A stretch of DNA of 3,473 bases, taken from a virus. Lineage: Duplodnaviria > Heunggongvirae > Uroviricota > Caudoviricetes. Where the stretch lies: the IMG/VR virus record IMGVR_UViG_2526164609_000025; one strand, written 5' to 3'. Numbering within the stretch: the first letter of the stretch is position 1; each line of letters begins with the position of its first letter. Position numbers and translations under genes: made by a program. Positions 1,501-2,668 of the stretch are shown piece after piece. The notes under the pieces were generated by a model. It made no database searches and was not told the origin of the DNA. It saw only the letters and a program-made list of their open reading frames with translations.

Positions 1501-1752
1501 ATGAAAAAAAGAAATTTTAGCGCAGAGTTTAAACGCGAATCCGCTCAACTGGTTGTTGACCAGAAATACACGGTGGCAGATGCCGCCAAAGCTATGGATG
1601 TTGGCCTTTCCACAATGACAAGATGGGTCAAACAACTGCGTGATGAGCGTCAGGGCAAAACACCAAAAGCCTCTCCGATAACACCAGAACAAATCGAAAT
1701 ACGTAAGCTGAGGAAAAAGCTACAACGCATTGAATGGAGAATGAAATATTAA
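1501..1752 (+). CDS. IS911-like transposase OrfA (helix-turn-helix DNA-binding subunit), 83 aa as encoded; C-terminus apparently altered by a frameshift
   Basis: ATG at 1501 preceded by AGGTG; [83 protein letters not shown]. Matches recalled IS911 OrfA up to ...LQRIE, then diverges and stops at 1750-1752. The ORF-track start at 1465 (MICSPQ...) is an upstream in-frame extension. Confidence 0.85.
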
Positions 1753-2668
1753 AAAAGGCTACCGCGCTCTTGATGTCAGACTCCCTGAACAGTTCTCGAT
1801 AATCGGGAAACTCAGAGCGCATTATCCTGTGGTCACACTCTGCCAAGTGTTCGGGGTTCATCGCAGCAGCTACAGATACTGGAAAAACCGTCCTGAAAAA
1901 CCAGACGGCAGACGGGCTGTATTACGCAGTCAGGTACTTGAGCTACATGGCATCAGCCATGGTTCGGCCGGAGCAAGAAGCATCGCCACAATGGCAACCC
2001 GGAGAGGCTACCAGATGGGACGCTGGCTTGCTGGCAGGCTCATGAAAGAGCTGGGGCTGGTCAGCTGTCAGCAGCCGACTCACCGGAATAAACGTGGTGG
2101 TCATGAACATGTTGCTATCCCTAACTACCTTGAAAGGCAGTTCGCCGTGACCGAGCCAAATCAGGTGTGGTGCGGTGATGTGACCTGTATCTGGACGGGT
2201 AAGCGCTGGGCGTACCTCGCCGTTGTTCTCGACCTGTTCGCAAGAAAACCAGTGGGCTGGGCCATGTCGTTCTCGCCGGACAGCAGGCTCACCATGAAAG
2301 CGCTGGAAATGGCATGGGAAACCCGTGGTAAGCCCGGCGGGGTGATGTTCCACAGCGATCAGGGCAGTCATTATACGAGCAGGCAGTTCCGGCAGTTATT
2401 GTGGCGATACCAGATCAGACAGAGTATGAGCCGGCGCGGAAACTGCTGGGATAACAGCCCAATGGAACGCTTCTTCAGGAGTCTGAAGAACGAATGGATG
2501 CCGGTGGTGGGTTACGTAAGCTTCAGCGAGGCAGCTCACGCCATAACGGACTATATCGTTGGATATTACAGCGCACTAAGACCGCACGAATATAACGGTG
2601 GGTTACCCCCAAACGAATCGGAAAATCGATACTGGAAAAACTCTAACTCGGTGGCCAGTTTTTGTTGA
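1748..2668 (+). CDS. IS911-like transposase OrfB (DDE catalytic domain), normally expressed as OrfAB fusion by -1 frameshifting
   Basis: Frame open from ATT at 1748-1750 (IS911 OrfB is known to initiate at an AUU codon) to TGA at 2666-2668. Catalytic residues in WCGDVTCIW (D), [12 protein letters not shown] (D) and [18 protein letters not shown] (E). ORF track lists the GTG-initiated part 1829..2668. Confidence 0.85.
1751..1757 (+). promoter_or_regulatory. Programmed -1 ribosomal frameshift heptamer A-AAA-AAG of the IS911-like element
   Basis: AAAAAAG at 1751-1757; the -1 frame continues open into the DDE transposase ORF ([44 protein letters not shown]...). Standard IS3-family motif. In this copy the zero frame of the heptamer is not the frame of orfA. 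Confidence 0.7.

Follow-up and report, generated by a model that had tools for sequence, protein, structure and literature searches.

The IS911 copy and its parts

We analyzed a stretch of 3,473 nucleotides from IMG/VR record IMGVR_UViG_2526164609_000025 (the whole stretch is called the window), which is an exact substring of CP026823.1 (assembly GCA_002949655.1). The window carries a copy of the insertion sequence (IS) IS911 whose orfA has lost one base upstream of the site of programmed frameshifting. IS911 is a member of the IS3 family and was first isolated from Shigella dysenteriae. Its GGAG motif serves as both frameshift stimulator and ribosome-binding site, and initiation of OrfB at AUU was reportedly established by Polard et al. 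in 1991. IS911 OrfA has 100 amino acids, and the transposase is produced via programmed -1 frameshifting (PMC2909936). The copy in the window has the following parts:

1429-2676, plus strand: IS911 copy, 1248 bp, with 99.8% full-length identity to copies annotated "IS3-like element IS911 family transposase"
1429-1464, plus strand: left terminal inverted repeat (IRL), starting with TG, identical to that of intact copies
1501-1752, plus strand: truncated orfA (OrfA', 83 amino acids), canonical OrfA residues 1-78 followed by WRMKY; Pfam HTH_Tnp_1, E=1.6e-14
1732-1737, plus strand: GAATGG, the site of the missing A (GAAATGG in intact copies), located by alignment at reference position 305
1736-1739, plus strand: GGAG, Shine-Dalgarno-like, read in the sequence 5' of the slip site and the AUU start
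1748-1750, plus strand: ATT, the reported OrfB initiation codon, which in the deleted allele shares one base with the orfA' stop TAA (1750-1752)
1751-1757, plus strand: slippery heptamer A-AAA-AAG, intact, out of orfA phase
1748-2668, plus strand: orfB frame, 306 codons, open and full length, with a DDE domain (Pfam rve, E=1.4e-31; rve_3, E=3e-10)
1758-1875, plus strand: region of the downstream frameshift-stimulating RNA structure, unchanged relative to intact copies
2641-2676, plus strand: right terminal inverted repeat (IRR), ending with CA, without substitutions relative to intact copies

When the IRL was compared with the reverse complement of the IRR, 24 of the 36 positions matched, and the ends of the element read TGAAGTGG...CCACTTCA. 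The window copy thus has unchanged terminal repeats, an unchanged heptamer and downstream stimulator region, and an open orfB frame; between positions 1752 and 2086 there are zero differences from intact copies. The centroid fold of 1758-1875 consisted of an outer stem around two hairpins, with an energy no better than that of shuffled sequences (z = -0.53), and the region is identified here by its sequence identity with intact copies. The frameshift stimulator downstream of the IS911 slip site is described as a three-way junction (PMC5009743).

A one-base deletion uncouples orfA from the slip site

Starting at ATG 1501, orfA is read in frame 1 and ends ...CGC ATT GAA TGG AGA ATG AAA TAT TAA (...RIEWRMKY*), which gives 83 codons and a stop at 1750-1752. 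The heptamer at 1751-1757 is in zero phase in frame 0 only, and just above it frame 0 reads TGA ATG GAG AAT GAA ATA TTA AAA AAG (MENEILKK). The truncated orfA arrives in frame 1 and orfB lies in frame 2, so that at the heptamer orfA is in +1 phase and orfB at -1. A first-pass annotation of the window, made from its letters alone, had described the orfA frame and stop, the phase of the heptamer, and the frame of orfB in the same way, and the canonical OrfA C terminus that it cited agrees with the 100-amino-acid OrfA of intact copies.

Among annotated full-length IS911 copies, the nearest have a length of 1249 bp (e.g., NZ_CP065614.1, 36022-37270). Pairwise alignment of intact copies with the window copy, which the first-pass annotation had proposed as a check, revealed exactly one gap (the A of GAAATGG, reference position 305) and two substitutions. 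Intact copies read GAAATGG where the window copy has one A fewer, as that annotation had supposed, and the missing base sits 15 nt upstream of the slip site. The annotation had placed the altered motif correctly but had put its end one base too early (about 1732-1736 instead of 1732-1737).

In intact copies from E. coli, S. flexneri, and Shigella plasmids, OrfA has 100 amino acids and a simulated -1 slip on the heptamer produced an OrfAB of 389 amino acids. The same simulation on the window copy yielded nothing past the 83-amino-acid product. Because of the one-base loss, orfA meets A-AAA-AAG one phase off and stops at UAA 1750-1752, and since this stop lies on the out-of-phase heptamer, the OrfA-OrfB fusion cannot be made from the window copy by the normal -1 slip. 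The claim that orfA terminates on the heptamer and that the family-typical fusion is impossible is therefore upheld by both the reading frames and the slip simulation. A complete transposase is not encoded by the window copy through the normal decoding route (83 versus 389 amino acids). Judged by its reading frames, this phase failure marks the copy as defective, yet still IS911.

The first-pass annotation had also stated that a truncated OrfA and an AUU-started OrfB could still be produced, and both frames are indeed open. OrfA' keeps the helix-turn-helix and ends with Ile77-Glu78 followed by WRMKY; it would lack the last two heptads of the leucine zipper (Leu84 and Leu91). Haren et al. reportedly found in 1998 that the leucine zipper is essential for multimerization and activity. 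OrfB could still start at AUU 1748.

The copy shares with canonical IS911 99.8% nucleotide identity over 1248 of 1249 bp (membership asks for more than 95% along the element), the inverted repeats, the heptamer, the AUU, the downstream region, the helix-turn-helix of orfA, and the DDE domain of orfB. It differs in the loss of one A at 1732-1734, in an orfA of 83 instead of 100 codons that is out of phase with the heptamer, in the changes Y114N and Y147C in orfB, and in having no target duplication.

The deletion is shared between assemblies and loci

In the following, L-numbers (L002-L067) are labels for compared IS911 copies or loci in other records. A 100% identical deleted copy was present at the same locus in CP026823.1, CP026807.1, CP026825.1, and AKNG01000053.1, the last of which is a separately submitted draft of S. 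dysenteriae 225-75 from another project. Looking up the tail-fiber assembly protein encoded beside the element led to the orthologous locus in ten assemblies. The junction between IS911 and the tail-fiber gene was identical in all ten (10/10), and the junction between IS911 and the adjoining IS600 was identical in the nine assemblies having it; L058 retains only the first 158 bp of IS911. Altogether, the deletion was found at seven distinct sites in four assemblies, the window locus included, and at the window locus in three further assemblies. Only one of the seven deleted sites keeps a target duplication, namely the copy at otsA, which has a perfect 3-bp duplication (TAC) and is common to three assemblies. 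Four NCBI assemblies encode the exact 83-amino-acid product, at ten places altogether. The exact protein is further listed under independent accessions from S. dysenteriae 225-75 and from Shigella sp. FC1544 as well as in a UniRef S. dysenteriae entry, with a total of 22 contigs.

The first-pass annotation had offered a homopolymer sequencing error as an alternative to a real lesion. On that view the element is in truth intact, and the A was dropped from a short homopolymer during sequencing or assembly. The missing base does fall in an AAA run, and the assembly series contains other copy-specific homopolymer indels (in the C-run at reference position 1179, in the A6 run of L013, and several in the ATCC 9754 plasmid). 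However, the byte-identical deleted copy at the same locus in four assemblies, one of them from another project, contradicts this alternative, as do the absence of the same base at other loci and the 83-amino-acid product under several independent accessions. Moreover, GAAATGG is what many further copies in these assemblies show, which rules out a systematic miscall of the motif. We regard an error as hardly credible.

Every IS911 copy in the ATCC 9754 assembly (plasmid CP026843.1, L013, L064) has several extra private one-base indels, which could reflect either real decay or insufficient polishing of a long-read assembly; CP026842 and CP026843 were paired as ATCC 9754 by accession contiguity only.

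To delimit the allele, we used short queries around the deletion. Among the 3,692 records of complete E. coli genomes that matched a 71-mer (window positions 1700-1770), none did so at 100%, and the best (98.6%) had one gap; among 1,833 matching PLSDB plasmids, 102 of which are from Shigella, there was likewise no match at 100%. A 41-mer spanning the deletion had no exact match in a representative-genome collection or in metagenome contigs. The representative genomes gave 21 occurrences of the canonical 42-mer, located in S. flexneri SFBU1023 and E. coli ECMA0423. On these matches, the deleted allele is confined, within the collections searched, to one Shigella dysenteriae lineage and is not private to the window copy.

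The parent allele and variation in orfB

CP026807.1 and GCA_900618175.1 contain, at eight or more sites, an allele that has GAAATGG and otherwise matches the window copy at every position. These parent-type copies all encode an OrfA of 100 amino acids and an OrfAB of 389 amino acids, and perfect 3-bp target duplications (CCC, CAG, TAT, and AAG) flank four of eight. Its many sites, four of them with perfect duplications, mark the parent allele as recently active; the window copy is, by comparison of the two sequences, this allele minus one base. CP026807.1 contains the deleted copy at the window locus together with at least six copies elsewhere whose open reading frames (ORFs) are intact, and helper transposase is thus available in such cells.

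Besides the deletion, two positions in orfB and the length of a C-run distinguish IS911 copies:

2087, plus strand: A, against T in E. coli and S. flexneri copies; orfB codon 114 TAT>AAT (Y114N), also in the intact multi-copy parent allele
2187, plus strand: G, against A in E. coli and S. flexneri copies; orfB codon 147 TAT>TGT (Y147C), three residues past the Asp of GDVT(Y/C)
2606-2610, plus strand: C5 run near the 3' end of orfB, with a length that varies between copies (C4, C5)

The first-pass annotation had passed over the two changes Y114N (2087) and Y147C (2187). A 217-amino-acid OrfB fragment called in the window bears Asn114 and Cys147. The Cys147 state was found in every examined copy of the Shigella lineage except for one plasmid copy with T (Phe), and a 61-mer with the Cys147 codon had an exact full-length match in only three E. 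coli plasmids among the matches listed. Both changes are probably not disabling, being part of the recently active allele.

Beside the first catalytic Asp, the two residues that follow GDV (window 2183-2187) read Thr-Tyr in copies from E. coli and S. flexneri and Thr-Cys in the lineage. CP026822.1, the 215.8-kb invasion plasmid of S. dysenteriae 96-3162, has Pro-Cys here in three copies and Thr-Phe in one. In total, four full-length IS911 copies lie on this plasmid, and three are ORF-intact. We do not claim the 96-3162 plasmids CP026821 and CP026822 as partners of chromosome CP026823.1, as the accession order is inconsistent in the submitter's batches. A survey with the type 1 strain Sd197 as its reference lists IS911 as lacking from the S. 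dysenteriae invasion plasmid (PMC7373316). The absence in Sd197 and the copies on CP026822.1 indicate that the IS911 content of the plasmid differs among S. dysenteriae lineages.

The C-run is C5 in the window and in all checked S. flexneri and E. coli copies, which corresponds to 1249 bp and an OrfAB of 389 amino acids. Full copies in SFBU1023 and ECMA0423 are all A3/A6/Tyr147/C5. Several Shigella copies have C4 (the run was noted in L005, L006, L007, L013, and L064), and their frame runs out through the right end. One added C in the run gives 1250 bp and 382 amino acids, which are the published figures for IS911; at the C-run, the IS911 reference sequence is therefore probably unlike the form usual in genomes.

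Sharing of the lesion between copies

At the orthologous locus, the deleted form was present in L059, L061, L064, L065, and L067, and the intact form in L060, L063, and L066. L062 (PSST01000003.1) has GAAATGG at the same locus together with an internal deletion of positions 326-836. The state of the element did not follow the flanking DNA: the deleted and the GAAATGG states are each present in both groups defined by single-nucleotide polymorphisms (SNPs) in the gyrA-side flank (columns 921 and 1079). Within the element, deleted and intact forms alike are paired with either state of positions 364, 660, and 756. Each pair shows all four combinations, in copies that differ at only a handful of sites. 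These discordant patterns, in the combinations of sites and in the state of the locus relative to the flank SNPs, argue for recombination between IS911 copies instead of simple descent. Such a pattern at the locus suggests ectopic gene conversion or reciprocal exchange between IS copies, either of which would yield it; the exchange may have run in either direction, spreading the lesion or repairing it.

The substitutions among the compared Shigella copies comprise three synonymous, nine non-synonymous, and one nonsense change, in addition to several private indels. The predominance of non-synonymous changes points to relaxed constraint in the IS911 population.

An alternative route to several loci is transposition. 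The deleted allele could have reached its sites mainly by mobilization in trans, using OrfAB made by intact copies. The terminal repeats are intact, the deleted copy at otsA has its perfect 3-bp duplication, and ORF-intact copies occur in the same genome (CP026807.1) and on the S. dysenteriae invasion plasmid CP026822.1. However, target duplications are kept at only one of the seven deleted sites, and the otsA copy could itself be the result of conversion after insertion. The state at the orthologous locus also flips between close strains without a new insertion, which transposition cannot explain. Finally, the reported activity of the IS911 transposase in trans is lower than that in cis by a factor of approximately 200 (PMC5009743). 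Mobilization in trans as the main route is possible but unlikely.

Expression from the deleted allele

We considered whether the deletion might create a new mode of expression. A compensating +1 shift would require that tRNA-Lys slips from AAA 1744-1746 to AAU 1745-1747, aided by the GGAGA three bases upstream, to give a transposase-like fusion. Frame 2 is open from 1745, so that a fusion is formally possible, and the sequence shows the Shine-Dalgarno-like element with its spacing. The three bases between GGAGA and AAA are presumably the spacing of the +1 site in prfB (release factor 2), which also has a Shine-Dalgarno-like element three bases upstream of the potential shift codon (GGAGA-AUG-AAA-U in the window). 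In the window, though, the codon after AAA is the sense codon UAU and the stop follows one codon later, leaving the A site without a slow or stop codon, and re-pairing would be poor. The allele as it reads does not qualify as a prfB-type +1 site, and the likeness is a resemblance only. The product of the shift would also be one residue short within the leucine zipper, and the deleted copies show no excess of target duplications and gather further frameshifts. We consider such a shift scarcely plausible. Transcriptional slippage on the A6 run was rejected as another means of rescue, since the TAA ends in the two A's that begin the run, and T-A-A survives any run length.

The overlap of the orfA' UAA with the orfB AUU could instead promote termination-reinitiation and raise the amount of OrfB alone, and OrfA' and OrfB might together damp intact copies. 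The AUUAA overlap, with GGAG 8 nt upstream of AUU, would suit such a regulator, and the allele persists at several loci and in several strains. Drift and conversion in a pathogen with small populations, however, account equally well for this persistence, and the further decay of deleted copies argues against selection on their products; a regulatory role is improbable. The broader proposal is that the deletion rewires expression, making the copy either a coupled producer of OrfA' and OrfB that damps intact copies or a source of low-level +1 fusion, and thereby aids its persistence or copying in an IS-overloaded lineage. We judge this to be very unlikely, and both the orfA'/orfB coupling and the +1 slip at AAA-U 1744-1747 to be unlikely on the sequence as it stands.

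Origin and fate of the deleted allele

Hence, the window copy most likely represents a real, heritable, defective IS911 allele in an S. dysenteriae lineage, which arose from a recently active allele and has been passed between copies by recombination (probability about 0.8). One A of GAAATGG has been lost from a copy of the recently active allele. Ribosomes translating orfA would then reach A-AAA-AAG out of register and stop at UAA, and OrfAB would not be made. The deleted copy would be immobile alone and would still be a substrate for transposase from intact copies. Homologous recombination or gene conversion among IS911 copies would move the deleted segment between loci, or repair it, with occasional mobilization in trans as a possible second route.

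Several points weigh against this account. The loss of transposase from the deleted allele is deduced from reading frames. The flank phylogeny has only two or three informative SNPs, and a swap of the entire locus from strain to strain could look like conversion between copies. The intact helper copies in CP026823.1 are presumed from CP026807.1, whose copy at the locus is identical. Several assemblies look long-read only and have many private homopolymer indels, ATCC 9754 especially, so that some copy-specific differences may be assembly errors; the shared deletion is not among them. The approximately 200-fold preference for cis makes mobilization in trans a weak second route.

Comparison with other defective IS copies

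Losses of one base within the frameshift window are common in IS911. The window allele resembles the A5G allele, which is widespread in E. coli and known from K-12 as the "InsN for IS911B" type (OrfA of 90 amino acids, ...ILKRLPRS). Both have a one-base deletion in an A-run within the frameshift window, both place orfB in +1 instead of -1 phase relative to orfA, and both are present in many genomes. The A5G allele destroys the heptamer (AAAAAG for AAAAAAG, window-equivalent 1751-1756), whereas the window allele keeps the whole heptamer and has its lesion 15 nt upstream. An exact A5G 71-mer was the best match in 686 E. coli records and the canonical sequence the best exact match in 729; the window allele occurred in none of the matching E. 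coli records. RefSeq labels the E. coli A5G copies (e.g., L002 from YJ4 and L003 from 7/2) as "programmed frameshift".

Decayed or non-autonomous IS copies that ectopic recombination keeps alike, in the concerted evolution of IS families, offer a second comparison. Like them, the window copy is a defective member of a multi-copy family with intact ends, and its lesion is shared in patterns that require recombination. It differs in being full length with a single-base lesion, and is not a miniature derivative.

Genomic setting of the window

The remaining features of the window flank the IS911 copy:

719-1264, minus strand: tail-fiber assembly gene (prophage), Pfam Caudo_TAP, in the left flank of IS911
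about 1267-1428, minus strand: 3' end of a tail-fiber gene, cut at the junction with IS911; the uninterrupted homologue in E. coli VL40 runs past the junction
2677-3101, minus strand: IS600, about 425 bp from one end, including orfA (2724-3026); 98-99% identity to annotated IS600 over query positions 1-425, Pfam HTH_Tnp_1
3078-3473, minus strand: DUF2138 gene, a 131-codon ORF as in other strains; Pfam DUF2138, E=6.7e-57

In CP026823.1, gyrA lies past the DUF2138 gene and an ipaH gene past the tail-fiber genes, and these neighbors beyond the two ends of the window identify a Shigella chromosome as its source. CP026823.1 was reached by looking up an exact protein match; in the E. coli collection, no record covered as much as 80% of the window. 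IS911 is among the five IS that are expanded in all Shigella species (PMC7373316).

The IS600 remnant adjoins the right end of IS911 directly and in the opposite orientation. IS911 lacks a 3-bp target duplication here, with GTT on the left (1426-1428) and TAC on the right (2677-2679). An identical IS911/IS600 junction is present at a second chromosomal locus, beside copC/yebY, in two other assemblies (L004 and L009). The absent duplication and the recurring junction suggest a past rearrangement through IS copies. At the left junction, the uninterrupted E. coli homologue (VL40) shows the expected sequence after ...CGGTGTT. In a search for the partner flank that would supply the missing duplication, none of three right flanks starting with GTT (L005, L010, and L012) matched the E. 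coli homologue. The IS911/IS600 arrangement on E. coli plasmids was set aside, as IS600 interrupts IS911 there, which is a different junction.

Implications

By its sequence, the window copy is an ordinary non-autonomous IS911 with a well-known kind of decay. Our literature searches turned up no account of the deleted allele and no mention of the accession numbers. In databases, the copy would be better recorded as a frameshift-disabled IS911 than as a "programmed frameshift" transposase. The gene tables of L059 and L067 give a 389-amino-acid product over a span of 1168 nt for the deleted allele, which is possible only with a non-standard join and masks the defect. Together with the "programmed frameshift" label on A5G alleles, these calls illustrate that annotation can hide such defects.

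The allele also provides a small, clean case of sequence exchange among IS911 copies within one Shigella lineage. Knowledge of the IS911 mechanism is unaltered, and the modest addition is the evidence that a lesion is exchanged between copies. A disabling lesion may come or go at a fixed locus without transposition, which is relevant to counts of "active" IS copies and to the use of IS variants as lineage markers.

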